From an uncultured Candidatus Saccharibacteria bacterium (GTDB taxonomy: Bacteria > Patescibacteriota > Doudnabacteria > UBA920): a DNA stretch of 64,000 bases. Numbering within the stretch: the first letter of the stretch is position 1; each line of letters opens with the position of its first letter. Under the pieces are notes generated by a model that was given only the letters and a program-made list of their open reading frames with translations, did no database searches and was not told the DNA's origin. The stretch spans positions 5,094-69,093 of the forward strand of contig CAZGEB010000002.1 of the NCBI GenBank assembly GCA_964524915.1, read 5' to 3'. Position numbers and translations under genes: made by a program. Shown piece after piece: positions 7,301 through 40,522 of the stretch.

Positions 7301-9685
7301 ATGTCAAAACCTTTAATAATAGTAGAGTCCCCCACCAAAGCCCGAACCATCACCAAGTTCCTCGGGAGTGAATATATAGTGGAGGCAAGTGTGGGCCATA
7401 TCAGGGACCTCCCTAAATCCAAGATTTCTATTGATGTTAAAAATGATTTTACCCCCACCTACGTCATTCCACCTGCCAAAGCAGAAATAGTAGAAAAACT
7501 GAAACACCTAGCAGCAAAAGCCTCAGAAATCATTCTAGCAACCGACGCCGACCGAGAAGGTGAGGCTATTTCTTGGCATCTGATCCAAGCCCTAGGCTTG
7601 GAAAATAAGAAAACAGAAAAAAGAAATCAGAAAAATCAATTGGAGGCTGCCTCTGCTTCCGAGCTCACGCCTCACGCCTCTCCGCCAGCCGGCGGACTCA
7701 CGCCTATCAAGAGAATTGTTTTTCACGAAATTACCAAATCAGCCATTGAAGAAGCCTTAAAACACCCAAGAGACTTAGATCAAAATCTGGTAGATGCCCA
7801 GCAAGCTCGCCGCGTACTAGATAGACTAGTAGGCTATGAGCTCTCACCTTTCCTCTGGAGAAAAGTACGCTACGGACTTTCTGCTGGCAGAGTCCAAAGT
7901 GTAGCTGTGAGGCTCGTCGTGGAAAGAGAAAGAGAAATTCAAAAATTTAAAACAGATGAATACTGGAGTATCAAAGCCCTAGCAGAAAACCAAGCAAAAT
8001 TCACTTTCGAAACCAGACTACACAAAGTAGCCGAAAAAAACCTGGGCAAATTAGATATTACAAATCAAGCTCAAGCAGAAAAGTATGTAGGAGAAATGCA
8101 AAAAGCTTCTTGGGTGGTTTCTAGCGTGCAGAAAAAAGAAGCCAAGCGCAACCCTTCAGCACCTTTTACCACCTCCACCCTCCAGCAAGAAGCAGCAAGA
8201 AAACTTGGATTTAGCGCCAAACAAACCATGGCAGTTGCCCAAGGTTTGTACGAGCAAGGTTTTATCACCTACATGCGTACCGATAGTTTGAACTTGTCAG
8301 ATTCAGCGATTAAACAAGCCAAAGAGATTATAACTGGACAATTTGGAAACCAGTATACACTAGAGACGCCAAGAATATTTACAAACAAATCCAAAGGCGC
8401 ACAAGAAGCTCACGAAGCCATTCGTCCCACAGACCTATCTAAACTTCCACAACATTTAAGTGGGGACCTGGACAGAAATCAATCCAGACTCTACGACCTT
8501 ATTTGGAAAAGAACCATCGCCTGTCAAATGCAACAAGCTTTGGTAGAACAAACTACAGTAGATATAGAAGGTAAATGTACCACAGAAAATAATCCTTACA
8601 CCTTGAGAGCCAACGGACAGATCATTAAATTTGATGGATTTATCAGAGTTTATACAGAAGGCAAAGACGCAGAAGATGACACAGAAGAAGACGGTGAAAA
8701 AACTTTGCCGGACTTAAAAGAAGGAGAGACTATCAGCGTCACCGACATTACTCCCGAGCAACACTTCACCGAACCACCTCCTAGATATACTGATGCCACA
8801 CTTATCAAAGCCCTAGAATCAGCTGGCATAGGCAGACCTTCTACCTACGCCCCCACCCTCACTACCATTCAAGAGAGAGAGTATGTAGACAAAGAAGACA
8901 AAAAATATAAACCAACTGAAGTTGGAATAATCGTTAATGATCTTTTGGTAGAACATTTTCCAGAAATTGTGGACATCAATTTCACCGCTAGGATAGAAGA
9001 AGAATTTGATGAAATCGCCGAAGGCAAAACTAAGTGGGTACCGGTAATTCGGGAATTTTACGAACCCTTTAAAAAACATTTGATAGAAAAAGAAGCTGCA
9101 GTAGAAAAGCAAGTAGAAGAATCAAATGTCCCCTGCAGCCACTGCGGCAAGATGATGATCATCAAATTTGGTAGAGCAGGCAGATTCCTCGCCTGCCCAG
9201 ATCCTGAAAGCAAAATTACTCAGCCACTACCAGAGGAAGCCGCCAAGATCAAAGAGCTAGAAGAAAAAACCAAAGACGAGAGATGCCCTATTTGCGACAA
9301 GCCTATGGAGGTCAAGCGTGGCAGGTTTGGATTTTTCCTTGGCTGCACTGACTACCCCAAGTGTAAAGGCATATCAAAAATTTGGAATAAGACTGGTTTC
9401 AAGTGTCCGAACTGTTTAGAAAATGCAGACAGAAAAAATAAACCGGGCGACATCGTAGAGAAAAAAGGGCGTGGTCGCGCCAAACCTTTTTGGGCATGCA
9501 CTAGGTGGCCTGATTGTGAATTTATTATAAACGTCCATCCAGAGTCAGAGACCCAGCTCAAAGAGCTGTTTGAAGCTTGGAAAAAAGCTCCCAAAAAAGA
9601 CAAGGATGAAAAGAAGTCTCGCTATACAAAAAAGCCTACCACCAAGAAAACTGCAGCCAAAACAAAAAAGGATTCGGGCAAGTAA
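7301..9685 (+). CDS. topA: DNA topoisomerase I with C-terminal Zn-ribbon repeats and a Lys-rich tail
   Basis: Toprim N-terminus LIIVESPTKARTI, active-site GFITYMRTDS, and three C4 zinc ribbons (CSHCGKMM..C, CPICDKPM..C, CPNC..C). Confidence 0.95.
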   Translation: MSKPLIIVESPTKARTITKFLGSEYIVEASVGHIRDLPKSKISIDVKNDFTPTYVIPPAKAEIVEKLKHLAAKASEIILATDADREGEAISWHLIQALGLENKKTEKRNQKNQLEAASASELTPHASPPAGGLTPIKRIVFHEITKSAIEEALKHPRDLDQNLVDAQQARRVLDRLVGYELSPFLWRKVRYGLSAGRVQSVAVRLVVEREREIQKFKTDEYWSIKALAENQAKFTFETRLHKVAEKNLGKLDITNQAQAEKYVGEMQKASWVVSSVQKKEAKRNPSAPFTTSTLQQEAARKLGFSAKQTMAVAQGLYEQGFITYMRTDSLNLSDSAIKQAKEIITGQFGNQYTLETPRIFTNKSKGAQEAHEAIRPTDLSKLPQHLSGDLDRNQSRLYDLIWKRTIACQMQQALVEQTTVDIEGKCTTENNPYTLRANGQIIKFDGFIRVYTEGKDAEDDTEEDGEKTLPDLKEGETISVTDITPEQHFTEPPPRYTDATLIKALESAGIGRPSTYAPTLTTIQEREYVDKEDKKYKPTEVGIIVNDLLVEHFPEIVDINFTARIEEEFDEIAEGKTKWVPVIREFYEPFKKHLIEKEAAVEKQVEESNVPCSHCGKMMIIKFGRAGRFLACPDPESKITQPLPEEAAKIKELEEKTKDERCPICDKPMEVKRGRFGFFLGCTDYPKCKGISKIWNKTGFKCPNCLENADRKNKPGDIVEKKGRGRAKPFWACTRWPDCEFIINVHPESETQLKELFEAWKKAPKKDKDEKKSRYTKKPTTKKTAAKTKKDSGK
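7661..7705. repeat. in-frame insertion: hairpin CTCCGCCAGCCGGCGGACTC flanked by TCACGCC direct repeats
   Basis: tcacgcc tcacgcc [tctccgccagccggcggac] tcacgcc. The 20-bp core is identical to 38424-38443 in the pnp leader. Encodes ELTPHASPPAGGLTPIK. Confidence 0.6.
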
Positions 9686-9925
9686 ATAAGGCGCTATTTT
9701 ATATGTCACTCATTCGAGACTTCCGGGAAGCCATGGTAAATGCGAGGAAGATTATAGAAACCAAAAAAGAAATTACAATTTTAAGAAGAGAAAATTAAAT
9801 ATTAAGCCAGAAGATAAAGGCGTTAGAGCCCATCGAATTAGAAAAAATAGACGGCGTCTGGACAAGCACAAGAGAAACATCACCAAGACCAACAAAATCA
9901 TAACTAACTAGTAGCACAAATAAAC

Positions 9926-9954
9926 AACCCCTGAAACTTCAGGGGTTGTTTTGG
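9926..9954. terminator. bidirectional intrinsic terminator between topA(+) and the 9964 ORF(-)
   Basis: aacccctgaaacttcaggggtt is a perfect 8-bp G/C stem, followed by gttttgg. Confidence 0.6.
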
Positions 9955-9963
9955 TTATAAAAT

Positions 9964-10266
9964 TTATTCTTTTTCTGTTTTTGCTCCAGATGGCAAAAAT
10001 CTTCCAAGCCACACAGAAACCAAAGCAGCGATAACAGTTATCAATGCAGCATAACCGATTTCTCCTACCAAAGAATCACCATGGAAAAATCTTTCAAACA
10101 AATGATGCAAAGCTTTGTCCCAAGCGAGAGCAGCAATGAGTCCCACCGCAGCAATAACTAAAAAAATAATCCTTTGCATCACACTCAAATACACATGCCT
10201 GACTTCATGCTTTTCCAAAAACTTCTCTAGTTCTGCGACTATGATTTTCTGCTCACTATCCAACAT
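9964..10266 (-). CDS. hypothetical small membrane protein
   Basis: 100 aa with two predicted TM helices (IIFLVIAAVGLIAALA, YAALITVIAALVSVWL). Confidence 0.45.
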   Translation of the reverse strand: MLDSEQKIIVAELEKFLEKHEVRHVYLSVMQRIIFLVIAAVGLIAALAWDKALHHLFERFFHGDSLVGEIGYAALITVIAALVSVWLGRFLPSGAKTEKE

Positions 10267-10299
10267 AAAAAATTAATATTTTACCTCCGTGCTATTCTT

Positions 10300-10509
10300 T
10301 TAATCTTCTAGATCCCCAAGAGTGCTTGTGGGGCTGGCTGTTATCTCTTTATGGCCGCCAAAACTAGGCCACTTTGCTTTAACCGAAACTCCAGTTTGTT
10401 TAGCTAATTCAATCAATTTTTGAGCAAAGTTTTTAAAACTATCATCATAGCCAAACTCAATTTCAGCGGATAATCCACTAACCTTCATATATATTATAGA
10501 AAATAGCAA
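10300..10509 (-). CDS. hypothetical protein
   Basis: 69-aa ORF immediately upstream of tRNA-Lys. No motif. Confidence 0.3.
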   Translation of the reverse strand: MLFSIIYMKVSGLSAEIEFGYDDSFKNFAQKLIELAKQTGVSVKAKWPSFGGHKEITASPTSTLGDLED

Positions 10510-10510
10510 A

Positions 10511-10588
10511 TGGTGGGTTCGCCGGGGATCGAACCCGGGACCGTTGGCTTAAGAGGCCACTGCTCTACCAGCTGAGCTACGAACCCGC
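10511..10588 (-). tRNA. tRNA-Lys (anticodon CTT), CCA encoded
   Basis: Reverse complement GCGGGTTCGTAGCTCAGCTGGTAGAGCAGTGGC-CTCTTAA-GCCAACGGTCCCGGGTTCGATCCCCGGCGAACCCACCA. Cloverleaf with a G27:A43 mismatch; anticodon loop CTCTTAA. Confidence 0.85.
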
Positions 10589-10792
10589 AAAATACAATAC
10601 CAAAATCAATAATTCAAAATAACTATTCCCAATATTCAAAAACCCACCGTCTTTATACTACTCCAATACAACAAACAGGAAAATTTTATCGCACGAACCT
10701 GGCTAGTCGCCCGAAGATTTAACGTAAATCGTGGTTACACCACCAGAGAGCTTTACAGGGTGGCTGTGCCACCCGGAGCTTTAGCGTAGGGT

Positions 10793-10867
10793 GGTGGGTT
10801 CGCCGGGGATCGAACCCGGGACCGTCTCCTTAAAAGGGAGCTGCTCTACCGACTGAGCTACGAACCC
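10793..10867 (-). tRNA. tRNA-Lys (anticodon TTT), CCA encoded
   Basis: Reverse complement GGGTTCGTAGCTCAGTCGGTAGAGCAGCTCC-CTTTTAA-GGAGACGGTCCCGGGTTCGATCCCCGGCGAACCCACCA. Same G27:A43 mismatch as its neighbour. Confidence 0.85.
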
Positions 10868-10976
10868 AAAACGTACAGACAGATACTTCAATATTTTACC
10901 TATATTTCAAAATATTTTCAAGTGGTCTGTCAATTTGCCAAGAACGCCCCAAAAGACTACACTTATATCATAAATC

Positions 10977-11429
10977 TTGATAATTATTCATTTTATGGAA
11001 AATACCAACCCAGCCCAAACCCCACAATCCCCAATGGAAGAAAAAACTTGGAGGCAATGGATTCCCCTAGGCATCCTCATCGTGGCAGCCGCTCTCATAG
11101 GCTGGCAATTAGGCAAGCCTACCACCAAGGATATGAATGACAAAAATAAAGAGCAAACCAGCTCTGTGCAAACCACTCAAAAAGAAGAAAGCATTCAAAA
11201 ACCCAGCTCTGGCAGTCAAAGCATTCAAGGCGATCAATTAAAACTGGAAGGCGTAATGCTCCCATCCAAAGAACCCAAGCGCGGCAATGTAGTACTGCAA
11301 TCAGGCGACCAAATTATTTACCTCTGGACCAGCCGTGACATTGGTCAATTCATCGACAAAGAAGTCACCGTGACCGGCACAGGCAGCATCACTAGTTTTA
11401 AAATTTCTAGCATTGAATTAAAAAAATAA
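10977..11429 (+). CDS. hypothetical membrane-anchored protein
   Basis: N-terminal TM helix (WIPLGILIVAAALIGW) then a Ser/Gln-rich linker and a beta-rich C-terminus. Start may be at 10995. Confidence 0.45.
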   Translation: MIIIHFMENTNPAQTPQSPMEEKTWRQWIPLGILIVAAALIGWQLGKPTTKDMNDKNKEQTSSVQTTQKEESIQKPSSGSQSIQGDQLKLEGVMLPSKEPKRGNVVLQSGDQIIYLWTSRDIGQFIDKEVTVTGTGSITSFKISSIELKK

Positions 11430-11447
11430 AAAACATTTATAGATAAA

Positions 11448-12377
11448 ATGCAAAATTTCGTACCCCAATCCACCGGCGATTTCGAGCTTTTAGATTCAGG
11501 CATGTCCATGCGCCTAGAGAAATGGGGGCAGTATACTTTGTCACGCCCAGACCCACAAGCCATTTGGCAACCTTCTCTTCCCAAAGAAGAATGGGAAAAA
11601 GCTGATGCGGTTTTTGACGATGGCTGGAAAATAAAAAATAAAATCCAGCAACCTTGGGTGTATAAGTACAACCTCTCTGCCCCAATCAAAGCATCGGGGC
11701 ATCTCCCCTCACAAGGAGAGAGTATAAGGTTGTTCGCAAGGCTCACGGCTTTTAAACACACTGGTATTTTTCCAGAGCAAGCCTACAACTGGCAATGGCT
11801 TTCCCACAAGCTAAAAGCTATAAGCTATAAGCTAAAAATCCTCAACCTCTTCGCTTACACAGGTGCTACCACTTGTCTACTAGCTAGCCTTGGCTGCCAG
11901 GTAACTCATGTTGATGCATCAAAACCCTCTATTGAGTGGGCGAAAAATAATGCGAAGCTGAATAATCTCCCAGAAGATAGTATCCGCTGGATTTTAGATG
12001 ATGCGGCCAAGTTTGTAAAAAGAGAAATTAGGCGTGGGGCCGAGTACGACGGCATCATCATGGACCCGCCTGCTTTTGGGCACTCCCCTAGTGGTAAAAC
12101 TTGGAAATTTTCAGAAAATTTACCAGAACTGCTTTCCGATTGCATAAAGCTCTTGAGCCCACATGCACAATTTTTGATAATCAATGCCTACGCCACCAAC
12201 ACTTCTAGCATTGCGCTACAAAATTTATTAGAAGACAGCTTGCCCCCTCCCCTTCTGAGGGGAGGGTTGGGGAGGGGTGGTATTGAATCAGGCGAACTTT
12301 TACTTGAGCAAAAAAATAAACGCCTGCTATCCACAGGCATTCTCGCTAGATGGTCAAAACACACTAATCACAACTAA
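11448..12377 (+). CDS. class I SAM-dependent methyltransferase (RlmI/RlmK-like rRNA methyltransferase fold)
   Basis: FAYTGATTCLLASLGCQVTHVDASK...DGIIMDPPAFG. Carries an in-frame heptamer repeat (11806-11835) and a GC-rich palindromic insertion (12241-12290). Confidence 0.7.
   Translation: MQNFVPQSTGDFELLDSGMSMRLEKWGQYTLSRPDPQAIWQPSLPKEEWEKADAVFDDGWKIKNKIQQPWVYKYNLSAPIKASGHLPSQGESIRLFARLTAFKHTGIFPEQAYNWQWLSHKLKAISYKLKILNLFAYTGATTCLLASLGCQVTHVDASKPSIEWAKNNAKLNNLPEDSIRWILDDAAKFVKREIRRGAEYDGIIMDPPAFGHSPSGKTWKFSENLPELLSDCIKLLSPHAQFLIINAYATNTSSIALQNLLEDSLPPPLLRGGLGRGGIESGELLLEQKNKRLLSTGILARWSKHTNHN
12241..12290. repeat. GC-rich palindromic element (ccccctcccc-ttctg-aggggaggg-tt-ggggagggg) in frame in methyltransferase CDS
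   Basis: Reverse orientation of the CCCTCCCCTCAGAAGGGGAGGGG core. Encodes PPPLLRGGLGRGG. Confidence 0.6.
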
Positions 12378-12387
12378 TCCTTATCAC

Positions 12388-13662
12388 ATGACAGAGTTGT
12401 TGACGTTCACACAAGAATTATCCACCTCGGAGTGGAAGACCCAATTCCAAAAGGCAGCCAGAACCATTACCGACTTACGGGGTTATTTCAATTTTACCGA
12501 AGCAGAAATTCAAGAGATGAGTGAGACACTCAAAAATACTAGGATGAACATAACTCCTTATTTACTGAGTCTAATTGAAGTAGACACCAATTTAAAAATC
12601 AAACCTAACGATCCTATTTGGCTACAATATGGTCCGTCCAAAATAGAAGCAAATATCTATGATAAAGAGCAAACATGGGAAAGACGGGCAGAGATGTTTG
12701 CGAGTGGACTTGATAATGAGACATTATCTCAAGATTTAGAGCAAGAAGACTTTTTAGGACAACACAAATACCCAGACAAAGTAGTCATACGAATTGCCCA
12801 CCATTGCGGGGCGTATTGTAGATTCTGCTACGAAAGAAGGCGAACCCTAGAGCAAAATCCACCCAGTACTTCCAGAAAAGCACTGGAGCAAGCAGTGCAA
12901 TATTTACAAACTCACCCAGGAGTGAGAGAGGTTATCCTATCAGGTGGAGATCCGCTTGCACTACCCGATAATGCGATTGAAACATGGATTACAAGTTTCA
13001 GCAAAATAAGCACCATAGAATCAGTGCGTATTCATACTAGAATGTTAGCGCAAAACCCATATCGCACTACCCCAGAGCTGATTGAGATTTTAAAAAACAA
13101 TGGAGTTAAGTGGATAAACGTACAAGTTAATCATCCTAAGGAGATCACCGACGAATTTCTTTGTGCCGTAAAAAATATCAAAAAAAATGGTATCATCGTC
13201 AAAACAGAAAGCCCCATTATTCATAGACTAAACGACGACCCTGAGATTCTGGCAACACTAATTAAACTGTGTCGCAGACATGGTATACAACATCATCATT
13301 GGTTTCATTCTATGCCAAGCACCCCCGTAGAAATGCGCACCTCCATAGAAAAGGCCATATTGTTGTTCCAAAAAACAAAAAAACTATTGGGTATACGCTG
13401 GAATTCATCGGAGCTGGGAGACCTAGTAATCCCACACCCTGACGGCAAGCGAACAGTTCCTTGGGAAGAAATTAACATTGACACCACCCTGCCAAGAGAA
13501 AAATGGGGGACACAAAATTTTCAGTTTACAACTAACAATGATGGTAAACCTATTATAAAATTTACTTCTTGGAATTCACATCAAACAGAACTGCAGGAAT
13601 ACCTAGACCCTAACATAAATCTATACGATATTAGCAAAAGCGATTTTATCGGTTTACTTTAA
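12388..13662 (+). CDS. KamA-family radical SAM protein (lysine 2,3-aminomutase / EpmB-like)
   Basis: CGAYCRFCYER is the KamA-type CX3CX2C cluster. The 12277 ORF start overlaps the upstream gene, so the start is taken at ATG 12388. Confidence 0.75.
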   Translation: MTELLTFTQELSTSEWKTQFQKAARTITDLRGYFNFTEAEIQEMSETLKNTRMNITPYLLSLIEVDTNLKIKPNDPIWLQYGPSKIEANIYDKEQTWERRAEMFASGLDNETLSQDLEQEDFLGQHKYPDKVVIRIAHHCGAYCRFCYERRRTLEQNPPSTSRKALEQAVQYLQTHPGVREVILSGGDPLALPDNAIETWITSFSKISTIESVRIHTRMLAQNPYRTTPELIEILKNNGVKWINVQVNHPKEITDEFLCAVKNIKKNGIIVKTESPIIHRLNDDPEILATLIKLCRRHGIQHHHWFHSMPSTPVEMRTSIEKAILLFQKTKKLLGIRWNSSELGDLVIPHPDGKRTVPWEEINIDTTLPREKWGTQNFQFTTNNDGKPIIKFTSWNSHQTELQEYLDPNINLYDISKSDFIGLL

Positions 13663-13747
13663 TAATCAGACACATTTACTCACAAACCTCTGTTTTTAAT
13701 AAAAAAAATAATACTCCCACCTATAAGCTATAAACTATAAGCTAATT

Positions 13748-14293
13748 CTACACTTCTTGTCTGTTTGCCACAAATCGGCCAAACACGACCAGGAAAATCA
13801 CAGGAGAGACCAACCAAAAAACTTTTGCCCCTGCATACAAAAACACTTGTTGTACCAAAGGTGCAAACCCGTCCCTTACAGGCCCAGGCAAATAACCCAA
13901 AACTATACTTGTCAGCAAGCCGACCTGCAAAACCGAAAAAATAATTATAAAAATCAACCCCACCCCCCTGCCTTCAGCCGAAAGCTTGAAAGCGTGCTTG
14001 GAAAGTGCTAGAAAAATTATCACGAACAAAACCCCAAACACTACTAAATTTTGCAAATCCCCATCTGCGACTGACAGTCTTTCTGCCACCATTTTGTGCA
14101 ACCATGGCACCTCAAGAGCAAGCAACCTGGATACATAAATAGCAATCAAAAGCCCAAGCACTCTTCCCCTACCAGCAGAAAATGCATAGAGAATAGAAAC
14201 ACCCAGCCACCCCAAAAGAATAAATAGGCTCCAAGAAGGCTGGCTCCAATTAAAACCCCTCACTAAATTTTCAACATGACTAAAATCCAACAT
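13748..14293 (-). CDS. CvpA-family membrane protein
   Basis: 181 aa with four TM segments, resembling CvpA (colicin V production) topology. Confidence 0.55.
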   Translation of the reverse strand: MLDFSHVENLVRGFNWSQPSWSLFILLGWLGVSILYAFSAGRGRVLGLLIAIYVSRLLALEVPWLHKMVAERLSVADGDLQNLVVFGVLFVIIFLALSKHAFKLSAEGRGVGLIFIIIFSVLQVGLLTSIVLGYLPGPVRDGFAPLVQQVFLYAGAKVFWLVSPVIFLVVFGRFVANRQEV

Positions 14294-14354
14294 AAATATA
14301 TTATACCATTAATTTAGTGGTATAATATATTTGTATTATTAAAATAAATAAAGT

Positions 14355-14669
14355 ATGAGAAAAATCCTACTCACTGGTGGAGTTGTGATAGCGGCATTGC
14401 TCGCATTTATCACAATGAACGCCAAAAGATCCCAAAGTCCAACCGATTTGGTGGACCAGAACATGACAAACAATAGCAGAGCAGAAGCTGTTATCCCAAA
14501 CTCACCATCCACCGGCAACCCTGTGGATGACGTGGCCCAAGCTATCAGCAACGAGACCGAAGCTGAAAATAAAATCGCAAGCGAGGCTGAAGTCGCCCCA
14601 GCAGACTTCACAGCTGAAGTTACAGAAACTAATGCTATAAATAATTTCTATGATGCAAATAAATTCTAA
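14355..14669 (+). CDS. hypothetical secreted/anchored small protein
   Basis: Signal-anchor MRKILLTGGVVIAALLAFITM followed by an acidic tail. Confidence 0.4.
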   Translation: MRKILLTGGVVIAALLAFITMNAKRSQSPTDLVDQNMTNNSRAEAVIPNSPSTGNPVDDVAQAISNETEAENKIASEAEVAPADFTAEVTETNAINNFYDANKF

Positions 14670-15462
14670 AATTATATTTTCAGCAACTCTAGTTGCTAGT
14701 CTTTCTTTGGTTTTTCCAGTTTCAGCAGCCCAGGCAAAATTAGAAGGCCCTGAAACCAATAGGCCAACCACGACCAAAGAAGCCATTTCAACAAATAAAG
14801 ATACAGCCAAAGAAGCAGCTGGAAATTTTTGTACCAGATTTAGCACAGAACACACAAATCTAGAATCAAAATTAGCAGAAAAGGAACAAGAGCTAAACAC
14901 CCGACGCCAAGAAAGAGCGGAGAAAACTATTGAAAAAAGAGAAACTAGAGATGAAAAGTTGGACAGTGTGAGAGATCAGGGAGATACACAAAGAGAAGCT
15001 AATTTTACCAAGCTCCTAGAAAAAGCTGACACCGACGCCAAGAAAGCTGCGGTAGAAGCCTACAAAAAGACTATCCAAGATGCTATAACAAAAAGACGCA
15101 CCGCAGTAGATGCAGCACTCAAAACTTTTCGCGATGGCGTAAATGCTGCAGCAGTCACCCACAAAGCTGCGGTAGACAAAGCCATAGAAACTCTCAAAAC
15201 CGCAACTGATGCAGCTACCACAAAAGCCGCCGCTGACTGTGCAGCAAACGTCCCCCCCACCACAGTTAGACAGACTTTCATGAAATCTATGGAAGCTGCC
15301 AGAAAAGCTTTTCAGACAGCTAGAAATTCCACTTCAAACCCAGGCAAGAAAGTAGAAGAGCTTGCTAAAGCTAAAAATGCCAGCATCAAAGCTGCTTTTG
15401 ATGAATTTAGAACCACTGCAGAAAAAGCTCGCGCCACCCTCAAAACTGCTTTCGGAATGTAA
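14650..15462 (+). CDS. hypothetical secreted coiled-coil protein (contains a C7 homopolymer tract)
   Basis: Signal peptide ...FPVSAAQA followed by Lys/Ala/Glu-rich helical repeats. C7 run at 15252-15258 encodes VPPTT. Confidence 0.5.
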   Translation: MMQINSKIIFSATLVASLSLVFPVSAAQAKLEGPETNRPTTTKEAISTNKDTAKEAAGNFCTRFSTEHTNLESKLAEKEQELNTRRQERAEKTIEKRETRDEKLDSVRDQGDTQREANFTKLLEKADTDAKKAAVEAYKKTIQDAITKRRTAVDAALKTFRDGVNAAAVTHKAAVDKAIETLKTATDAATTKAAADCAANVPPTTVRQTFMKSMEAARKAFQTARNSTSNPGKKVEELAKAKNASIKAAFDEFRTTAEKARATLKTAFGM

Positions 15463-15532
15463 AATATATAAAAAATATGTTTAAAAAGCCCAACTTTTAA
15501 AGCTGGACTTTTTTTATTAGAGAGGTTATTTT

Positions 15533-16264
15533 TTAAGTCAATGAAATATTATATTTTTGAAGAGCCTTTTGTAGTTCGTCCCAACGAATCGGCATATTGT
15601 GATTATCTTTCAAATCCAAAGCTATCGGATAAATCAACTTTGCTATTTCTACAGCCTTGTCTTTTTCCCCAATTTGCAAAAACACCAAAGCCAACCTAGC
15701 TAGGTTTCCACTATGAACAACCTTCTGATGCCAGCCCCGAAGTTCAGTTTTACCACTCGTCATCTCTACAGCTTTTTCTAAATTAGAAACCCCCTCTTCT
15801 ATTTTCCCATCAAAAGCTTGCGCCTTGCCTAATTGACTTAAATACTCCGCATACTCTCCAGGCTTTTCTTTTTCAATATCACCCAAGTTTTGGATGGCTT
15901 TTTCCATCTCCCCCAAAGCTTCTGGATATTTTTTATAATGAAAAAAGTAATCCCCTGCTCGCAAATGCATCACCGCCACTGCCTGGCCAGACAATTTTAA
16001 ATCTACTGCCAACTGAAGCCCTGCAGCTGTGACTCCATGCATCAAGTGTAGATAAAACTCCTGCCCAGTTTTTGTAAATTGATCTTTGAAAATCAGTAAC
16101 TGATGCCAGTAAGCATTCACTGCCAAAACACCATCTTTTTTCAAAGCAGCATCAAGTAAAGCTTTTTGACTCAAAAGTAAAGCCTGGTCAATATCCCCAG
16201 ACTCCCTCGCCTTTTCTAATGGCTCAAAATATTGTACGTAATCCATATAAAACAAGGATACCAA
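15533..16264 (-). CDS. hypothetical protein with TPR-like helical repeats
   Basis: 243 aa with repeated A..Y/L..A helical patterning. No catalytic motif seen. Confidence 0.45.
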   Translation of the reverse strand: MVSLFYMDYVQYFEPLEKARESGDIDQALLLSQKALLDAALKKDGVLAVNAYWHQLLIFKDQFTKTGQEFYLHLMHGVTAAGLQLAVDLKLSGQAVAVMHLRAGDYFFHYKKYPEALGEMEKAIQNLGDIEKEKPGEYAEYLSQLGKAQAFDGKIEEGVSNLEKAVEMTSGKTELRGWHQKVVHSGNLARLALVFLQIGEKDKAVEIAKLIYPIALDLKDNHNMPIRWDELQKALQKYNISLT

Positions 16265-16299
16265 AATATGATTTTCCTAGCAAATGCTATACTAAGCTC

Positions 16300-17166
16300 A
16301 TGGGCATATTTTATGCAATTTTAGCTATGCTTTCTTGGGGTGGTGGAGATTTTTTAATAGAAAGATCTAGCAGAAAATTTGGCGCGCCCTTGGCACTTTT
16401 TTATGTGACTGCAGTCGGAAGCCTCATAACACTACCTTTTATATACAAAGATTTATGGAGCATCCTGCAAAATCCACCCGCGAGCTTGATGGTGTTACTT
16501 CTAGCCTCTATCATCACCCTCTTCGCCTCCATAATAGACTTTGAGGCATTAAGAATTGGCAAGCTTTCAGTGGTAGAACCAGTTTACGCCACAGAAGTTT
16601 TTGTGACCATAGTTTTAAGTACTGTAATCATTCAAGAAATAATTTCTAAAGGACAAATCATCTTGGTCATTCTTTTAATGCTTGGGGTGGCCATGGTCTC
16701 ACTGAAATCCTTACGCCGCCTCAAAAAAGTTTTTCTAGAAAAAGGCGTGGGCCTAGCATTTCTTTCTGCTATCCTAATGGGCTTTACCAATTTCTTTGTA
16801 GGTTACAGTTCCAGACTCACCTCACCTCTACTTACTCATTGGTTCACCTGTACAATAATTGCTGTGGCAATGCTGATATATTTGTGGAAAAACAAAGCAT
16901 ACAAAAAGATATTAGGCTCAATAAAAAATAATGCCTTACTCATTACATCCGTTGGCATACTAGATACTCTAGCCTGGGTCAGTTTTTCTTATAGTGCCAT
17001 ACTAATACCCATAGCCATAGCCACCGCAATTTCGGAAAGCTATATAGCCATTGCCGCCATATTGGGACTCGCTCTAAACAAAGAAAAACTAAAAAAACAC
17101 CAAAAACTTGGTGTTTTCATAGCTATCATCTCCGCCATTTTCCTGGCTTATTTATCGGAAAAGTAA
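16300..17166 (+). CDS. DMT-superfamily (EamA-like) transporter
   Basis: About ten TM helices starting MGIFYAILAMLSWGGGDFL. Start moved to 16300 to avoid overlap with the upstream minus-strand gene. Confidence 0.65.
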   Translation: MGIFYAILAMLSWGGGDFLIERSSRKFGAPLALFYVTAVGSLITLPFIYKDLWSILQNPPASLMVLLLASIITLFASIIDFEALRIGKLSVVEPVYATEVFVTIVLSTVIIQEIISKGQIILVILLMLGVAMVSLKSLRRLKKVFLEKGVGLAFLSAILMGFTNFFVGYSSRLTSPLLTHWFTCTIIAVAMLIYLWKNKAYKKILGSIKNNALLITSVGILDTLAWVSFSYSAILIPIAIATAISESYIAIAAILGLALNKEKLKKHQKLGVFIAIISAIFLAYLSEK

Positions 17167-17215
17167 AAATCAAATTGGGGTTTTTTAAATGAAGCATCCA
17201 AGCAAAGTAAACACA

Positions 17216-17890
17216 TTATCGCTTTACCGCCTTTATTAACATAAAAGCTGGGTATTTGTCGTTGTTTACTCTTTCAGCATTTGAAGGATCATACTTTTCA
17301 TCATAATCAATCAAATCAAAGTGCGATAAAAAATATGGGCTGAAAAACTCTGAAAATGTATGGCTTGGTTCGTGAACCACAAGCTTGCCACCAAACAGAA
17401 CAGAATGCACTAACTCTTTTTTGAAAAAATCTTTCCCATTCTTTTTCTTTTCCATAAACTGACGGATTGGATGCACAACCACAAAACAAAACACGCCCCC
17501 TTTTTTCAACACACGAAAAACTTCCTTGTAAGTTGGGTCTAAAGTTTTGGAGGTTTGAAATACATATTTACTAGCTACATAATCGAAGAAATTATTCCTG
17601 AAGGGTACTTTTTCATTTTTTGCTACCACCAACTCTGACCCTGGCAATCTTTTCTTGGCAAGCTCTATCATTTCCCTTGACACATCAACGCCATATACTT
17701 TAGCACCAGCAGTTTGAAAATTTTTCAGATCAATAGCATCACCACAACCTAGATCCAATATTTTTTTACCTTTCATCCCTGAAAGCAGTCGCGGATAATA
17801 AGCAGCATTTGTTATCTTGTCCAATTTGGAATGCAACAAAGAAAACTTACCTGCAATTTTATCGTATTGTTTAAGCTCTTCTAATTTCAT
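17216..17890 (-). CDS. class I SAM-dependent methyltransferase
   Basis: Motif I ILDLGCGDAID; post-I VYGVDVS; FDYVAS. Confidence 0.75.
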   Translation of the reverse strand: MKLEELKQYDKIAGKFSLLHSKLDKITNAAYYPRLLSGMKGKKILDLGCGDAIDLKNFQTAGAKVYGVDVSREMIELAKKRLPGSELVVAKNEKVPFRNNFFDYVASKYVFQTSKTLDPTYKEVFRVLKKGGVFCFVVVHPIRQFMEKKKNGKDFFKKELVHSVLFGGKLVVHEPSHTFSEFFSPYFLSHFDLIDYDEKYDPSNAERVNNDKYPAFMLIKAVKR

Positions 17891-18474: not shown

Positions 18475-18555
18475 GGATTGCTTGTTCTTTCATCCCAGCA
18501 GAAGATCTGTTATGTCCCCTCCGGGATTACTAAAATTATACCGCCATTATAAAAA

Positions 18556-19725: not shown

Positions 19726-19736
19726 AGCTCAACCTT

Positions 19737-19762
19737 ATAGGTTATACCTGATACCTTATAGA
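19737..19762. repeat. left inverted repeat flanking the four-helix-bundle gene
   Basis: taggttatacctgataccttatagaa. Its reverse complement ttctataaggtatcaggtataaccta matches the right flank acctataaggtataaggtatccc. Confidence 0.5.
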
Positions 19763-19766
19763 ATAA

Positions 19767-20180: not shown

Positions 20181-20189
20181 TAAAAGACC

Positions 20190-28988: not shown

Positions 28989-29040
28989 CCCCTCCCTTGA
29001 TCCCTCCCCTCAGAAGGGGAGGGGTTTAAGACACAAACTG
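28981..29040. repeat. GC-rich palindromic element (CCCCTCCC-TTGAT-CCCTCCCC-TCAGAA-GGGGAGGGG) between the DUF559 and M16 peptidase genes
   Basis: Canonical copy of the family, at the 5' end of the DUF559 gene and over the C-terminal codons and stop of the M16 peptidase gene (29026). Confidence 0.6.
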
Positions 29041-31295: not shown

Positions 31296-31595
31296 TTACC
31301 ACTCTAGACTTAAATCTTTCCAACTAGGATTCATTTGTTTTATTAAAAATTCTTTTTTCTCCCTACGCCAACCCTTCAGTTGTTTTTCTCTGATAATGGC
31401 TGATTCAATATTTTCAGTCTCTTCAAAGAAAATCAATTTATGACAATTGTATCTTTTAGTAAATCCTTCTAGTAAATTATTTTTATGCTCGTACACTCTT
31501 CTGACTAAATCATTTGTCACACCAACATACAAAGTCCCGCTCGTACTTGCCATAATATAAACATAATAAAATCTATTTTGCATAATGCAAACCAT
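31296..31595 (-). CDS. GIY-YIG nuclease-domain protein (UPF0213-like)
   Basis: FYYVYIMASTSGTLYVGVTNDLVRRVYEHK...EKQLKGWRREKK. Confidence 0.75.
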   Translation of the reverse strand: MVCIMQNRFYYVYIMASTSGTLYVGVTNDLVRRVYEHKNNLLEGFTKRYNCHKLIFFEETENIESAIIREKQLKGWRREKKEFLIKQMNPSWKDLSLEW

Positions 31596-32316: not shown

Positions 32317-33741
32317 CTATATTTTCTCTCCTAAGTAAGCTGGTAAATCTTTTACAGAAATGCGAACCTGTTCTTGTGTGTCACGGTCGCGTACGGTTAC
32401 AGTATCATCCTCCAAAGTTTGGAAATCTACGGTAATGCAAAAAGGTGTACCAATTTCATCTTGTGAATAATACCTCTTGCCTACATTGCCACGGTCATCC
32501 CAAGCTATGGGTAGGAGTTGCGAGTTGCGAGTTGCGAGTTGCGAGTAAATACTGCGGGCTTTTTCTACCAGCTCGGGTTTGTTTTTTAGCAGTGGAAACA
32601 CTGCACATTTATAAGGAGCTAATTTTGGTGGTAGCGCAAGCCACACTCGTTTTACTTGCGCGTTGTCGTCTAGATCTTCTCTGTAAAACTCAAAAAGAGT
32701 AGATAAAAACAAACGGTTAAAACCCAAAGAAGACTCCACTATATATGGATTAAACCTCTCGCCTGTTGCCTCGTCAAAATAAGTCAAATCTTGACCGGAA
32801 AATTTGGAGTGTTGATCCAGGTCGTAGCTGCCACGATTGTGCAGCCCTTCTATTTCCTTAAATCCCATTTCGGAAAACTCGTACTCTATATCCCATGCAT
32901 CCCTAGCGTAAAAAGCTCTCTCATCCTCTTCGTGTTGACGCCACCTGACACGCTCTTTACTAAATCCCAGAAAATCCACATAAAAATTTTTACGATATTC
33001 TTTCCACTCTTCATAATGTTTGTCTGCGTCCACGGGCGCACAAAAATACTGCACGTCCATTTGTTCAAATTCCCGAGTTCTAAAAAGAAAATTCTTTACT
33101 GTAATTTCATTACGAAAAGCCTTGCCTATTTGGGCAATACCAAAAGGGAGTTTCCTACGAGTAGTATTTTGCACCGACCTCCAGTCCACATAAATATTTT
33201 GGCAACTTTCCCCCTTCAAATAAACAAGGTTACTTGCTTCTTCTGTAGGGCCTAAAAATGTCTTTACTAATAAATTAAACTTTTTGGCAGCGGATAATGC
33301 ATTACCATCTGGACTTTTCAGTCCTTTTGACTGGATGAGGTCACTAGCTTGTTCCGCGGTCAAGGACCCTGCATTTTCCATTAAACCTGCCTCTTCTATC
33401 AAATGATCTGCTCTGTATCTTTTGTGCGTCACCAGATCTTCTACAAGTAAATCAGCAAAACCACCTACGTGACCACTGGCCTCCCAAACTCTTGGGTGCA
33501 TAAAAATCGCACCCTCAATTTCCACCACATCTTCCCGCTTTTGCGTATTCCAATATCTCCAAGCATGTTCTAAATTTTTCTTGAGCAAAAACCCCAAAGG
33601 ACCAAAGTCGTAGGTAGCAGCAAAACCCCCATAAATTTCTGAAGAGGGAAATACAAACCCACGACGCTTACAGAGCGCCACTATTTTTTCCATCTTTCCC
33701 TCCGAAGCCTTGGCAGAGGATAGTAAATTTTCTTGTTGCAT
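32317..33741 (-). CDS. glyQS: glycine--tRNA ligase (dimeric GlyQS type)
   Basis: MEKIVALCKRRGFVFPSSEIYGGFAATYDFGPLG and class II motifs. Carries an in-frame (GAGTTGC)4 repeat at 32515-32545. Confidence 0.9.
   Translation of the reverse strand: MQQENLLSSAKASEGKMEKIVALCKRRGFVFPSSEIYGGFAATYDFGPLGFLLKKNLEHAWRYWNTQKREDVVEIEGAIFMHPRVWEASGHVGGFADLLVEDLVTHKRYRADHLIEEAGLMENAGSLTAEQASDLIQSKGLKSPDGNALSAAKKFNLLVKTFLGPTEEASNLVYLKGESCQNIYVDWRSVQNTTRRKLPFGIAQIGKAFRNEITVKNFLFRTREFEQMDVQYFCAPVDADKHYEEWKEYRKNFYVDFLGFSKERVRWRQHEEDERAFYARDAWDIEYEFSEMGFKEIEGLHNRGSYDLDQHSKFSGQDLTYFDEATGERFNPYIVESSLGFNRLFLSTLFEFYREDLDDNAQVKRVWLALPPKLAPYKCAVFPLLKNKPELVEKARSIYSQLATRNSQLLPIAWDDRGNVGKRYYSQDEIGTPFCITVDFQTLEDDTVTVRDRDTQEQVRISVKDLPAYLGEKI
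32515..32545. repeat. heptanucleotide tandem repeat (AGTTGCG/GAGTTGC)x4 in frame inside glyQS
   Basis: gagttgcgagttgcgagttgcgagttgcgag encodes SQLATRNSQL on the minus strand. Identical tract in tgt (34660-34691). Confidence 0.9.
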
Positions 33742-34384: not shown

Positions 34385-35556
34385 GACTTAATTTCCCTAA
34401 AATCTTCCACCATCTTATCAAAATAATCAAACTCTATTGCTAGCCTGATTTTGCCCATGAGGTTTAGATAAAATCTGAGGTTGTGCATGGTGGCAAGGCG
34501 TAAAGCTAAAGGCTCTCCTGTGGCAAAAAGATGCCTGAGATAAGCTCTGGTGTGATTTAAACAAGCATAGCAATTACAATTTGGATCAATGGGCGTAAAA
34601 TCCTCCGCATACTTCTGTACACGAATATCTATGGTCTCGTAGCCCTCCCCGATTTCTAGTTGCGAGTTGCGAGTTGCGAGTTGCGAGGAAATATATAGTC
34701 TGCCGTGACGCGCTTCTCTACTTGGAATCACACAGTCAAAAGTATCACACCCTCTAGCAACTGCTTGCACTATATCAAAGGGGGTACCCACACCAAGCAA
34801 ATGTTTTGGTGAATTTTCTGGTAAATGTGGGACAGCAGACTCTACCGCGATCATCATTTCATCGTGACCTTCCCCTACTGCCACTCCACCGATAGCAAAA
34901 CCCTCAAACCCCAAAGCCACCATGTCTTCAGCTGATTTCTTTCTTAAATCTGGGAAAGATGCGCCTTGTACAATCCCCCAAAGTTTTTGTCCGCGGTTTA
35001 CCGGGTCACCATCCAAAACTATTCTTTGATGCTCCTTTACAGCCCTCTCTGCCCATCTTTTTGTCAGCTCTATAGACTGTTTTGATCTTTCATACTCAAA
35101 AGGAAAGCCTGGAAAATCATCTAGAATCAAAGCCACATCTGATCCTAAATTTGCTTGAATCTGCACAGACTTTTCTGGAGACAACATTTCTTCTCTACCG
35201 TCTAGGTCAAATTGAAAAAACACTCCGGCTTCTGTCACTTTTCGCATTTTTGCCAAAGAAAAAACTTGAAAGCCGCCACTGTCAGTAAAAATCGGCCCTT
35301 GCCAATTCATAAACTGGTGGAGTCCTCCGGCTTTATAAACAAGTCCATCCCCAGGGCGTTGCCACAAATGATAGGTGTTGGCAAGGATCATTTCTGCCCC
35401 CCAAAATTTCAGCTCTTCACTCGTGACACTTTTTACTGTGCCGCGCGTGCCAATAGGCAAAAAGATCGGCGTATGAACCTGACCGTGATGCGTATTTATA
35501 ATTCCAAGCCTTGCTTTTGACTTAGAATCTTTTTTTAAAATTTCAAAATATGGCAT
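34381..35556 (-). CDS. tgt: queuine tRNA-ribosyltransferase
   Basis: LPIGTRGTVKSV..., zinc site CNCYACLNH. Carries an in-frame (AGTTGCG)4 repeat at 34660-34691. Confidence 0.9.
   Translation of the reverse strand: MPYFEILKKDSKSKARLGIINTHHGQVHTPIFLPIGTRGTVKSVTSEELKFWGAEMILANTYHLWQRPGDGLVYKAGGLHQFMNWQGPIFTDSGGFQVFSLAKMRKVTEAGVFFQFDLDGREEMLSPEKSVQIQANLGSDVALILDDFPGFPFEYERSKQSIELTKRWAERAVKEHQRIVLDGDPVNRGQKLWGIVQGASFPDLRKKSAEDMVALGFEGFAIGGVAVGEGHDEMMIAVESAVPHLPENSPKHLLGVGTPFDIVQAVARGCDTFDCVIPSREARHGRLYISSQLATRNSQLEIGEGYETIDIRVQKYAEDFTPIDPNCNCYACLNHTRAYLRHLFATGEPLALRLATMHNLRFYLNLMGKIRLAIEFDYFDKMVEDFREIKS
34660..34691. repeat. heptanucleotide tandem repeat (AGTTGCG)x4 in frame inside tgt
   Basis: agttgcgagttgcgagttgcgagttgcgag encodes SQLATRNSQL, the same peptide as in glyQS. 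Confidence 0.9.
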
Positions 35557-38957: not shown

Positions 38958-39022
38958 AAAATTAAGTTGGGTTACTTATTTTAATCAAATAGGGGTGTAG
39001 ACTTCCACACCCCACAAAAAAA

Positions 39023-39358
39023 TTATTCAGAAACCACTACTTCACCACTTGCCACTTGAGCCGCATCTTGCTGGGCTTGACTTGCTTTGAGCAAATTTTG
39101 AAGTCCAAGTTTCTTTGCAATCTTCATTGCTCTTTCCAAACTTTCATCTTCCAAAAATCTAAAAAGTCTCCTGCGGTTACCCACCATCTTCAAAAGACCT
39201 CTTCTGGAGTGGTTGTCTTTTTTGTGCACTTTCAAATGTTCACTTACGAGACGAATTTCTTCGGTCAAGATAGCGATCTGTACCTCAGGACTACCAGTGT
39301 CTTCTCTGTGAATTCTAAATTTGCGAATAATCGCATCTTTGTCTTTTTTATCAAGCAT
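39023..39358 (-). CDS. rpsO: 30S ribosomal protein S15 with a C-terminal extension
   Basis: [28 protein letters not shown] is the S15 signature; about 20 extra C-terminal residues. Confidence 0.9.
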
Positions 39359-39538
39359 AAATATTCCTTTCGCATCAACAATTATTAAATAAATGTGATG
39401 CGTTCTCTACGGCTTTCACCCTAGAGAACTGTACGAACTGAGCTGCTTAAAGTCCCAGCCGTAGATTAATTAATTCTATATATACTATACTATATATAGG
39501 GTGGTTTATGCAAATGCATATTTTGCCCAAAATACCCC

Positions 39539-40522
39539 ATGAATTCCAAGAATCAAATAGAGCAATATATCCAAGATTTCCTAGAATATTGCGAAATTGA
39601 GAAAAATCGCAGCCCCAAAACTTTGGTGGCTTATGCTCATTATTTAAAAAGATTTGCTGATTTCACCAAAAGCAAAAACATCTCATCTCCGGACAAAATA
39701 GACCTAGAAGCCGTCAGGCAATTTCGCCTACATTTAAACAGGCTCAGTGACGACAAAGGCAAAAACCTCAAACTGATCAGTCAATCTTATCACATCATAG
39801 CTCTTCGGGCTTTCTTGAAATATTTATCCAAACGAGATGTGACCACCCTTGCCGCAGAAAAAATCGAACTGCCAAAAAATCCCTCACGCGAAGTCACCGC
39901 TCTTTCAGACGATGAGCTCCACAGAATTTTAGCCGCAGTAAACGACAACGAAGACCAAATGCAGCAACTCCGAGACCGCGCCATCCTACTCACCCTCTTC
40001 TCTTCTGGGGTGCGTATTTCTGAATTGGTTTCCCTCACCCAAAAAATGGTAAGCCTAGACAGGGGCGAATTTACTGTCCGTGGAAAAGGCGATAAACTCC
40101 GACTAGTTTTTTTGTCTACAGAAGCTACCGCTGCTATAAAAAATTATTTAAGCAAAAGAAAAGACAACCACCCTGCCCTTTTTATAGCTCACGGTAAATC
40201 TAAAAATGAATTAGAAAGAGAAATCTCCGCCCAATCCTCTGATCTATCAGGTATAAGGTATAAGGTATCAGCTACCGGCCTCACCGCAAGGTCAATCCAG
40301 AGACTCATCCACAAATACGCCATGCTTGCTGGAGTTTACAAAAAAGTCACCCCCCACACCCTCCGACACTCTTTTGCAACCGATCTTTTACGTAATGGCG
40401 CAGATATTCGCTCTGTACAAACCATGCTTGGCCACGCCTCAATCACCACTACGCAAATCTACACTCATGTAACCAATGAATCTTTGCGTGAAGTACACAA
40501 AAAATTTCACGGAAAAAATTAG
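39539..40522 (+). CDS. tyrosine recombinase XerC/XerD family
   Basis: R..HTLRHSFATDLL..GHASITTTQIYTHV (catalytic RHRY). Contains an in-frame (GGTATAA)n repeat at 40251-40270. Confidence 0.85.
   Translation: MNSKNQIEQYIQDFLEYCEIEKNRSPKTLVAYAHYLKRFADFTKSKNISSPDKIDLEAVRQFRLHLNRLSDDKGKNLKLISQSYHIIALRAFLKYLSKRDVTTLAAEKIELPKNPSREVTALSDDELHRILAAVNDNEDQMQQLRDRAILLTLFSSGVRISELVSLTQKMVSLDRGEFTVRGKGDKLRLVFLSTEATAAIKNYLSKRKDNHPALFIAHGKSKNELEREISAQSSDLSGIRYKVSATGLTARSIQRLIHKYAMLAGVYKKVTPHTLRHSFATDLLRNGADIRSVQTMLGHASITTTQIYTHVTNESLREVHKKFHGKN

Follow-up and report, generated by a model that had tools for sequence, protein, structure and literature searches.

Heptanucleotide tandem arrays within and between the genes of a Patescibacteria genome segment

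A 64-kb stretch of genome from an uncultured Candidatus Saccharibacteria bacterium (Patescibacteriota; contig CAZGEB010000002.1, positions 5,094 to 69,093; hereafter the window) is scattered with short tandem arrays of seven-nucleotide units, many of them inside housekeeping genes. This raises the question of what the arrays are, how they arise, and how a unit that shifts the reading frame can persist in a gene such as glyS or grpE. The answer we prefer, at somewhat better than even odds (a probability of roughly 0.55), is that they are heptanucleotide long simple-sequence repeats resembling the STRR heptamers of cyanobacteria, that is, non-functional products of slippage or template switching that have spread over short range and been filtered by selection.

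Period-7 excess and kinship among the arrays

Tandem Repeats Finder returned 69 rows for the window, 21 with period 7 and 8 with period 14. The number of exact tandem repeats expected for each period was taken from 40 third-order Markov (Markov-3) simulations of the window. With period 7 there are 21 repeats of at least 2 copies (5.8 expected), 12 of at least 2.5 copies (0.23 expected) and 4 of at least 3 copies (0.00 expected); for repeats of at least 2.5 copies, the counts are 2 against 0.5 for period 6 and 0 against 0 for period 8. Period 7 is the sole strongly enriched period, which argues against chance, and within the window this bears out the surplus over periods 6 and 8 that had been proposed from the sequence alone (the original prediction). 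Arrays occur at about 0.19 per kb, compared with 0.028 per kb pooled over loci of genomes in the Candidate Phyla Radiation (CPR; 80 loci, 1.34 Mb), so that it was fair, for the window, to call them a dominant feature; the accompanying description of the genome as AT-rich does not hold for the window, which has a GC content of 40.6% and is not notably so. Period-7 arrays are present within a few bases at every site that had been named, including the repeats of 'NOX', glyS and tgt (47197–227, 47471–508, 32515–46 and 34658–87), and further arrays lie at 2617–50 (der), 4323–52, 5637–66, 7601–35, 19725–65, 41292–41348 and 59874–904. Six further samples (Logan, JGI, ENA) yielded independent assemblies that are 99.9–100% identical to the window and gap-free over the arrays they cover, so these arrays are not assembly artefacts; their length is the same throughout, with no change in copy number seen.

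The arrays are also related to one another. Among the 19 arrays that entered the unit-pair analysis, seven pairs have the same unit, allowing for rotation and either strand, where 0.27 would be expected over the 64 kb (Monte Carlo P < 5e-5), and the median distance within a pair is 1.9 kb (permutation P = 0.0008). The unit families comprise AAGCTAT at 11808 and 13721 with AAGCTAC at 2617; AAGGTAT at 19725, 20159 and 40245; AAGAATA or AAGAGTA at 23194, 23611 and 23895; GCAACTC at 32515 and 34658; and a TCTCAAG-CCTCACT composite at 47190 and 47471, where a two-heptamer junction is common to both sites and opposite halves of it are expanded. In two of the families the bases at the array junction are shared as well. 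At 11808 and at 13721 the AAGCTAT array is adjoined by TCCCAC, and the array at 2617 by TCCCA; for the GCAACTC arrays, the junction reads GTATTTAC followed by TCGCAAC in glyS and ATATTTCC followed by TCGCAAC in tgt, and the flanks encode orthologue-conserved residues in both genes. The simplest history of this last pair is that the tgt array is probably a recent copy of the glyS array, made at the shared TATTT-CTCG sequence, because a close relative (see below) has the glyS array in common with the window but lacks the identical one in tgt, at a distance of 2.1 kb, and outgroups have neither. These observations are evidence that arrays are copied between nearby sites and have not all grown in place.

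Arrays inside genes and their turnover

Twelve of the 20 arrays tallied by location (60%) lie wholly within open reading frames (ORFs) and eight lie outside, in agreement with the earlier claim that many copies are intragenic. The intragenic hosts are Der, TopA, an RNA methyltransferase, GrpE, GlyRS (of the dimeric class II 'glyS' type, and not glyQS as first labelled), Tgt, XerC, a flavin reductase, an aminotransferase and a PGA_cap protein. Though the majority of arrays are intragenic, coding sequence makes up 87% of the window, and the 13% that is non-coding is enriched about 3-fold for arrays. Where the position in the protein can be checked, it is a linker or loop: the inter-domain linker of Der, a loop of TopA and variable loops of GlyRS, Tgt, XerC and GrpE. 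Comparison of GlyRS, Tgt, XerC, GrpE and MetRS with their orthologues places arrays inside the ORFs of conserved proteins with the frame kept and without orthologue counterpart, as is the case for the array loops of the first four in the window.

A 7-nt array runs through all three frames every 21 nt, so that the encoded peptide is periodic at seven residues; the glyS and tgt arrays, for example, both translate to SQLATRNSQL. The unit numbers within genes are not the multiples of three that had been expected. They are 4.3–4.7 copies, and it is instead the net length change relative to orthologues that is in frame. Stop codons are avoided in one of two ways. The units of all four intragenic arrays that are perfect (those in glyS and tgt, the first of the flavin reductase and topA at 7664) contain no stop triplet, and all five arrays with TAA-containing units (methyltransferase, grpE, xerC, aminotransferase and PGA_cap) deviate from the unit at the would-be in-frame stop. 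Measured against AAGCTAT, the unit of its intergenic sister, the methyltransferase array has AAA at both would-be in-frame TAA triplets, and in xerC the would-be TAA at 40245–50 reads as TCA in the sequence, with TCA again at the 3' edge. The loops of GlyRS, Tgt, MetRS, TopA and GrpE are shown by this natural experiment to be insertion-tolerant.

The window and a relative 93–96% identical to it (contigs L081 and L087, run DRR274959) together give a rare direct view of array gain, loss and replacement at defined sites. Four arrays are unchanged in the relative, namely those in xerC and glyS (both on L087) and the two flanking the first of two genes for four-helix-bundle (4HB) proteins, and arrays common to window and relative are of equal length. 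The array at 13721 is perfect in L081, with at least 4 copies, and the contig ends within it. At the tgt site L087 has, instead of the array, an unrelated GC-rich segment of 83 nt that bears a hairpin; at the grpE site L081 has about 75 nt of unrelated sequence with a CTCTCCCC/GGGGAGAG hairpin; and no array remnants flank the hairpin alleles of the relative at either site. The second 4HB cassette is missing from L081 together with both of its flanking arrays. An apparent A-to-G bias between the two grpE alleles was set aside, as it depends too much on a doubtful alignment.

Three other features emerge from this comparison. The spacer between grpE and dnaK (window 23177–23650; L081 6440–7571) is a variable cassette site, holding a 4HB gene in the window and two unrelated ORFs in the relative (204 and 101 aa, neither with a Pfam match). 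The middle of glyS (window 32620–33466; L087 7970–8848) is 76% identical or unalignable, compared with 88–95% at the ends, and this greater divergence than in the ends or the neighbouring genes suggests a recombination tract. The contigs of the relative stop inside heptamer arrays that are found at two loci (L081 15890–15917, L087 8921–8950; short-k-mer assembly), and this coincidence of contig ends with identical arrays of 30–32 nt suggests that such arrays fragment metagenome assemblies, presumably through a break of the graph at the repeat.

A wider comparison used the best 80 GlyRS-encoding loci among species-representative genomes (L001–L080). Among these, the nearest relatives of the window GlyRS are almost all metagenome-assembled genomes (MAGs) of Patescibacteria/CPR, at no more than 81% amino acid identity, and one, L056, is a complete chromosome of 0.81 Mb. 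The pooled loci contain 38 period-7 arrays against 4.3 expected, about 9-fold, with 29 against 13 for period 6, 3 against 0.4 for period 8, and a depletion of period 5. About ten genomes, with GC of 0.35–0.59, account for most of the arrays, and each heptamer-rich genome has its own units, which recur locally and in both orientations. The lengths of perfect period-7 arrays in L001–L080 and the window are bimodal: a background tail extends to about 21 nt, few arrays are found at 22–27 nt, and a second mode of 14 arrays lies at 28–33 nt, or about 4–4.7 units. The longest CPR array reaches 11.6 copies (L005).

The same loops recur as array sites in different lineages. Differing heptamer arrays occupy the GlyRS loop in 3 of 53 genomes (GCAACTC in the window, ATTCTCG x4 in L005 and AATCAGC x4.6 in L068), and the Tgt loop has arrays in the window and in L039 (CAGGATA x4.1). 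The GlyRS loop peptides that they encode are unrelated between lineages. The loop is 4 aa longer in the window and merely 1 aa longer in L005, so that arrays overwrite sequence beyond simply extending it. In MetRS, L001 and L063 have in common an array-encoded segment (NYELRI[TK]N) with a one-base difference in the unit, and L063 additionally contains an insert that measures exactly 21 nt (7 aa), equal to three units. Even in their core genes, streamlined CPR genomes carry repetitive 'junk'. A metagenome scan with (AGTTGCG)x3 matched more than 120 unrelated contigs with GC of 31–73%, which contain 196 arrays with period 7 compared with 25 for period 6 and 4 for period 8, so heptamer-rich genomes are common. 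In our search of the literature, nothing relevant came up on repeats of the heptamer or simple-sequence kind in CPR/Patescibacteria.

Inverted arrangements are seen in this wider material. In unrelated metagenome contigs, (AGTTGCG)n frequently occurs as adjacent inverted pairs that could form hairpins (L097 12394–12456, L118 6793–6854, L132 867–936, L101 916–1169), and the window pair at 41292–41348 is similar. In a Yanofskybacteria MAG (L046 2338–6009), one stop-free frame of about 1,220 codons contains eight heptamer arrays in 2.7 kb, which differ from one another and include inverted pairs about 50 nt apart.

Table 1 Heptamer arrays and four-helix-bundle genes of the window.
Feature	Position	Strand	Remarks
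(CAAGCTA)x4.9, imperfect, in der/engA	2617–2650	+	encodes QATSQQLQATSS; linker between two GTPase domains, aa 184–195
(ATCAAGG)x4.3, intergenic	4323–4352	+	starts 8 nt past pth stop codon
(AATTTCT)x4.3, spanning dprA stop and PGA_cap start	5637–5666	+	would-be in-frame TAA mutated
A-rich period-7/14 array (GAAAAxA), topA	7601–7635	+	TopA loop insertion, aa 101–112
(CTCACGC)x2.4 at 7664–7680, then hairpin TCCGCCAGCCGGCGGA, then CTCACGCCT, topA	7664–7705	+	hairpin is GC, 16 nt, nested within array; wholly in frame (ELTPHASPPAGGLTP), directly N-terminal of conserved KRIVFHEIT
(AAGCTAT)x4.3 in RlmI/K/L-like RNA methyltransferase	11808–11837	+	peptide KLKAISYKLK; 5' flank TCCCAC
(AAGCTAT)x3.4, intergenic between convergent genes	13721–13744	+	5' flank TCCCAC
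(TATAAGG)x4, imperfect	19725–19765	-	fills spacer from 4HB gene 1 stop to dnaJ start; inverted relative to 20159–20175
4HB gene 1 (PF05635/TIGR02436)	19767–20132	-	inverted heptamer arrays on both sides
(ACCTTAT)x2.4	20159–20175	-	27 nt upstream of 4HB gene 1; pairs with 19725–65 in predicted RNA fold
Degenerate (TATTCTT)-type array	23194–23233	-	between 4HB gene 2 stop and dnaK start; inverted relative to 23611–49 and 23895–927
4HB gene 2	23223–23606	-	between grpE and dnaK; inverted heptamer arrays on both sides
(AAGAGTA)-type array	23611–23649	-	between grpE stop and 4HB gene 2 start
(AAGAATA)x4.7 in grpE	23895–23927	-	peptide ENEELRIKNKEF; in-frame TAA altered to TTA
Perfect (GCAACTC)x4.6 in glyS	32515–32546	-	YSQLATRNSQL; variable segment after conserved I-Y
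Perfect (GCAACTC)x4.3 in tgt	34658–34687	-	SSQLATRNSQL; insertion relative to solved TGT structures
(TATAAGG)x3.4 in xerC	40245–40268	+	peptide LSGIRYKVS
Inverted heptamer arrays TGAGAAG TGAGCAG TGAGA ... TCTCACTTCTCA	41292–41348	.	hairpin upstream of VTT-domain gene
TCTCAAG, then perfect (CCTCACT)x4.4, in FNR-like flavin reductase gene ('NOX')	47190–47227	+	ASLLTPHSSLL
(TCTCAAG)x3.7, then CCTCATCACT, in FNR-like flavin reductase gene ('NOX')	47471–47510	+	
(AACTAAA)x4.4, imperfect, in class-V aminotransferase	59874–59904	+	QLKTKNSQLKT; in-frame TAA replaced

Origin of the arrays and competing explanations

We propose that a replication or repair error in a 7-nt register, either polymerase slippage or template switching, would first create arrays some 30 nt long. 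For the general excess of heptamers, polymerase slippage has been put forward as the source (Mrazek 2007, cited through PMC4679880). The arrays would then be re-copied nearby, typically no more than about 2 kb away and on either strand, where a short sequence is shared; the pair statistics given above document the pattern, and the mechanism is our interpretation of it. Selection sets which copies persist, as the roughly 3-fold higher frequency in non-coding DNA indicates. Within genes, survival is limited to linkers and surface loops, where the position can be checked, and requires a net length change that keeps the frame and a sequence in which no stop is read, whether the unit is stop-free or the offending copy has been mutated. 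The comparison at about 5% divergence shows fast turnover, and the same permissive loops have been struck more than once, in lineages independent of one another. As a side effect, inverted copies could form long-range RNA or DNA stems, for instance around the two 4HB genes.

Several points weigh against this account. It leaves the 7-nt register unexplained. Stepwise slippage by +7 cannot build arrays in essential genes because every step frameshifts, so intragenic arrays would have to come about, or be copied in, as a single event. That loops are overwritten is not expected from simple slippage, and the 28–33 nt mode, with few arrays at 22–27 nt, is unlike simple stepwise growth. The four arrays kept unchanged in the relative leave room for function at some sites, as does the first 4HB cassette, for which the identity to the relative, flanking arrays included, is 97%, slightly above the 93–96% of neighbouring segments. 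The microhomology argument is limited to the two unit families with common junction bases, and the data come from 64 kb of the host genome and about 25 kb of one relative.

It is possible, though in our view improbable, that heptamer arrays in Patescibacteria are a class of enzyme-less micro-mobile DNA. In that case template switching at forks or during repair would copy blocks of about 30 nt to microhomologous sites close by, loops of essential genes among them, where they would alternate with GC-rich hairpins, bracket small selfish genes (4HB, DUF559) and rewrite the loops of core proteins, the register being set by lineage-specific replication or repair machinery. If true, this would mean a continual rewriting of core-protein surface loops in ultra-small genomes.

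A role as functional cis elements seems unlikely to us. The arrays would then be protein-binding sites or signals for RNA processing or stability, such as RNase III-type stems that excise the ORFs of 4HB proteins (the 23S intervening-sequence protein family) from dnaK operon transcripts. This is suggested by the eight arrays in non-coding DNA, which are mostly a few nucleotides from start or stop codons, by the regulatory roles proposed for TAACTGA and GGGNATC heptamers in other bacteria, and by the 97% identity of the first 4HB cassette and its arrays. Furthermore, the arrays around each 4HB gene pair into a helix that closes the whole ORF in both minimum free energy and centroid folds, with flank duplexes stronger than in shuffled sequence (-34.2 against -19.9 +/- 3.7 kcal/mol for the first gene, and -20.7 against -12.7 +/- 3.1 kcal/mol for the second). 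However, the whole-transcript fold z-scores of these genes (-0.6 and -1.2) are not significant, and a promoter and terminator scan of 4250–24240 gave counts near background, with none of the sites listed standing out as tied to an array. The arrays in tgt and grpE are exchanged for unrelated sequence in a close relative, and a single sequence-specific function is argued against by units that vary by site and by genome and by the 60% of arrays that lie within ORFs.

The idea that inverted heptamer flanks are a general trait of 4HB genes was dropped. Three of the 80 CPR loci have a 4HB gene (L015, L018 and L039), none of the three has inverted heptamer flanks, and their flanks show no significant complementarity, which also counts against the cis-element explanation. 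The inverted flanks in the window look like a by-product of local copying in either orientation in a heptamer-rich genome. Two of the homologues, from different Patescibacteria MAGs, have a downstream heptamer doublet TTGCCCCTTGCCCTC in common (L015 ~6450–6470 and L018 ~13545–13565).

As unlikely, in our view, as the cis-element role is the proposal that very small mobile cassettes, either the 4HB genes or GC-rich hairpin elements flanking DUF559 genes, have the arrays as their ends, target sites or footprints, with solo intragenic arrays as remnants of insertion and excision. In its favor, the second 4HB cassette is present in the window with both arrays and is absent from the relative, small dispersed repeats of Nostoc are reported to insert within heptamer arrays (Elhai 2008), a GC hairpin sits within the topA array, the relative has GC-rich hairpin sequence at both array-less sites (tgt and grpE), and the DUF559 cassette with its CCCTCCCC/GGGGAGGG hairpins is at different loci in the two strains. 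Yet heptamer-rich CPR loci mostly have no 4HB gene, and no array remnants stand beside the hairpin alleles of the relative. No transposase or reverse transcriptase is found among the 67 window ORFs scanned, and XerC is the sole recombinase, so a DGR-type (diversity-generating retroelement) or IS-type (insertion sequence) origin is unsupported within the window; the 4HB proteins match the DGR protein Avd weakly, at 30 bits against a cutoff of 80. Target-site duplication also does not explain arrays of 11.6 copies.

The hairpins deserve description in their own right. The window has 13 GC-rich perfect hairpins where 0.6 are expected, two of them tRNA arms. One family (CCCTCCCC...GGGGAGGG, TCTCCCCTCACAAGGxGAGA) is found at 6539–6559, 12245–12266, 28322–28343 and 29002–29023, and also at 11702–11721, 59582–59601 and 60259–60293; several are intragenic (PGA_cap, methyltransferase, nfo and aminotransferase). 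Besides the heptamers, then, coding DNA tolerates this second class of tiny repeat. The DUF559 (Vsr-like endonuclease) gene at 28533–29023 has a 5' hairpin, CCCTCCCC-N6-GGGGAGGG, and a G-rich GGGGAGGG motif on its 3' side. It lies between genes for an M16 peptidase and nfo in the window and between tgt and glyS in the relative (L087 6873–7304), where the M16-nfo site (L081 1078–1361) has an 89-aa ORF instead. The gene with its hairpins looks like a small mobile cassette.

Selection at the protein level, whether for disordered loops or for flexible linkers with a 7-residue period, an idea put forward for Borg tandem repeats, is very improbable. The arrays do lie in linkers and loops, independent lineages have arrays in the same loops time and again, and the array-encoded MetRS segment is kept between L001 and L063. 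Against this, 7 nt is the wrong register, Borg repeats being multiples of 3 as described in PMC9879509, the same units are also intergenic and in both orientations, the encoded peptides are unrelated across lineages, and coding DNA holds fewer arrays than its share of the window would predict. Phase variation, in which gain or loss of units would switch genes on and off, is the least probable of all: short tandem repeats are classical slippage hotspots and a 7-nt unit does shift the frame, but the hosts are housekeeping genes, single-copy in the window (glyS, tgt, grpE, topA, der, xerC), and not surface or antigen genes, the assemblies of the six other samples have identical arrays, and those shared with the 93–96% relative are equally long.

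The remaining content of the window provides the setting. Its housekeeping genes include der, pth, dprA, topA, dnaJ, dnaK, grpE, hrcA, glyS, tgt, pnp, rpsO, xerC, rpoD, dnaG and the gene for RNase J, and Rfam at gathering thresholds finds six tRNAs in the window and no other family. Selfish-looking small genes are the two 4HB genes of PF05635, the DUF559 gene and one free-standing GIY-YIG nuclease-domain gene (31296–31595, 99 aa); the last of these and a RhuM/Fic-domain gene (56899–57891) are typical of mobile or defence-related DNA. Ribosomal protein S15 (39023–39358, 111 aa) has its Pfam S15 domain in residues 7–86 only, with a C-terminal extension of about 25 residues, and the protein is identical in the 93–96% relative. 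GC skew is negative in all 4-kb bins (-0.03 to -0.24) regardless of gene strand, and AT skew follows gene orientation; the entire window seems to fall within a single replichore whose strand asymmetry is unusually strong.

Comparison with known repeat systems

Heptanucleotide repeats have been known since 1990, and the STRR heptamers, with STRR1–3 units CCCCAGT, TTGGTCA and CAACAGT, are an established class of cyanobacterial repeat. Like the STRR sequences of Calothrix PCC 7601 and Nostoc/Anabaena, the window arrays are short tandem arrays of a 7-nt unit, fall into a few recurring unit families and have no known function. Unlike them, they are found in a Patescibacteria host, have unrelated units, are 60% intragenic and in frame, and form families that are local pairs or triplets within 64 kb. 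The term STRR-like used in the original prediction is therefore apt for the location in coding and flanking DNA and for the recurrence of a few unit families, and fails for the units and the host. The link it drew to heterocystous cyanobacteria is wrong, because the GlyRS relatives are Patescibacteria/CPR and no STRR1–3 unit occurs in tandem, and heptamers are not specific to cyanobacteria. TAACTGA and GGGNATC are likewise not found in tandem in the window: TAACTGA is present as 3 single copies, none of GGGAATC, GGGGACT and GGGGATT forms a tandem, and the window units are G-poor.

Rickettsia palindromic elements (RPEs) are selfish palindromes of about 100–150 bp that lie in frame in protein-coding genes. 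The likeness to the window arrays is one of behavior and not of family membership, in that non-coding-type repeats are tolerated in frame at surface-exposed positions of housekeeping proteins; the window arrays are direct repeats of 17–40 nt, not palindromes, and no sequence relationship to RPEs was found. Elhai is said to have reported in 2008 that the small dispersed repeats (SDRs) of Nostoc insert within heptamer arrays. These tiny hairpin elements associated with heptamer arrays recall the topA hairpin and the alternation at tgt and grpE, but the window elements share no known sequence with SDRs.

In the majority of bacterial genomes, heptanucleotides are described as the most abundant class of long simple-sequence repeat (Mrazek 2007, cited through PMC4679880 and PMC4692102). 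The class of long simple-sequence repeats with units of 5–11 nt defined by Mrazek, Guo and Shah in 2007 resembles the window arrays in its excess of period 7 over neighbouring periods and in the slippage origin proposed for it. That class is reported mainly from large genomes of non-pathogens, with units that are not multiples of 3 mainly outside genes. The window, in contrast, belongs to a very-small-genome lineage (the complete related chromosome L056 has 0.81 Mb) and has many arrays in essential genes, together with evidence of short-range copying between sites, which does not figure in the description of that class. The TAACTGA repeats of marine Beggiatoaceae, Cyanobacteria and Bacteroidetes (MacGregor 2015, PMC4679880) are direct heptamer repeats of 2–6 copies, often beside start codons, and their stop codons restrict placement within genes, much as in the window; they are a single unit across taxa with a proposed translational role, whereas the window has many genome-specific units that are mostly intragenic. 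The GGGNATC G-quadruplex heptamers of Xanthomonas and Nostoc (Rehm 2015, PMC4692102) likewise have a preferred size of about four units and lie near ORF ends, but they are under-represented in coding DNA, and the window units are not G-rich and cannot form G-quadruplexes. The kind of repeat described here is therefore already known, and what is new is the very-small-genome host lineage, the mostly intragenic location of the arrays, and the evidence that they are copied locally and that loops are rewritten recurrently.

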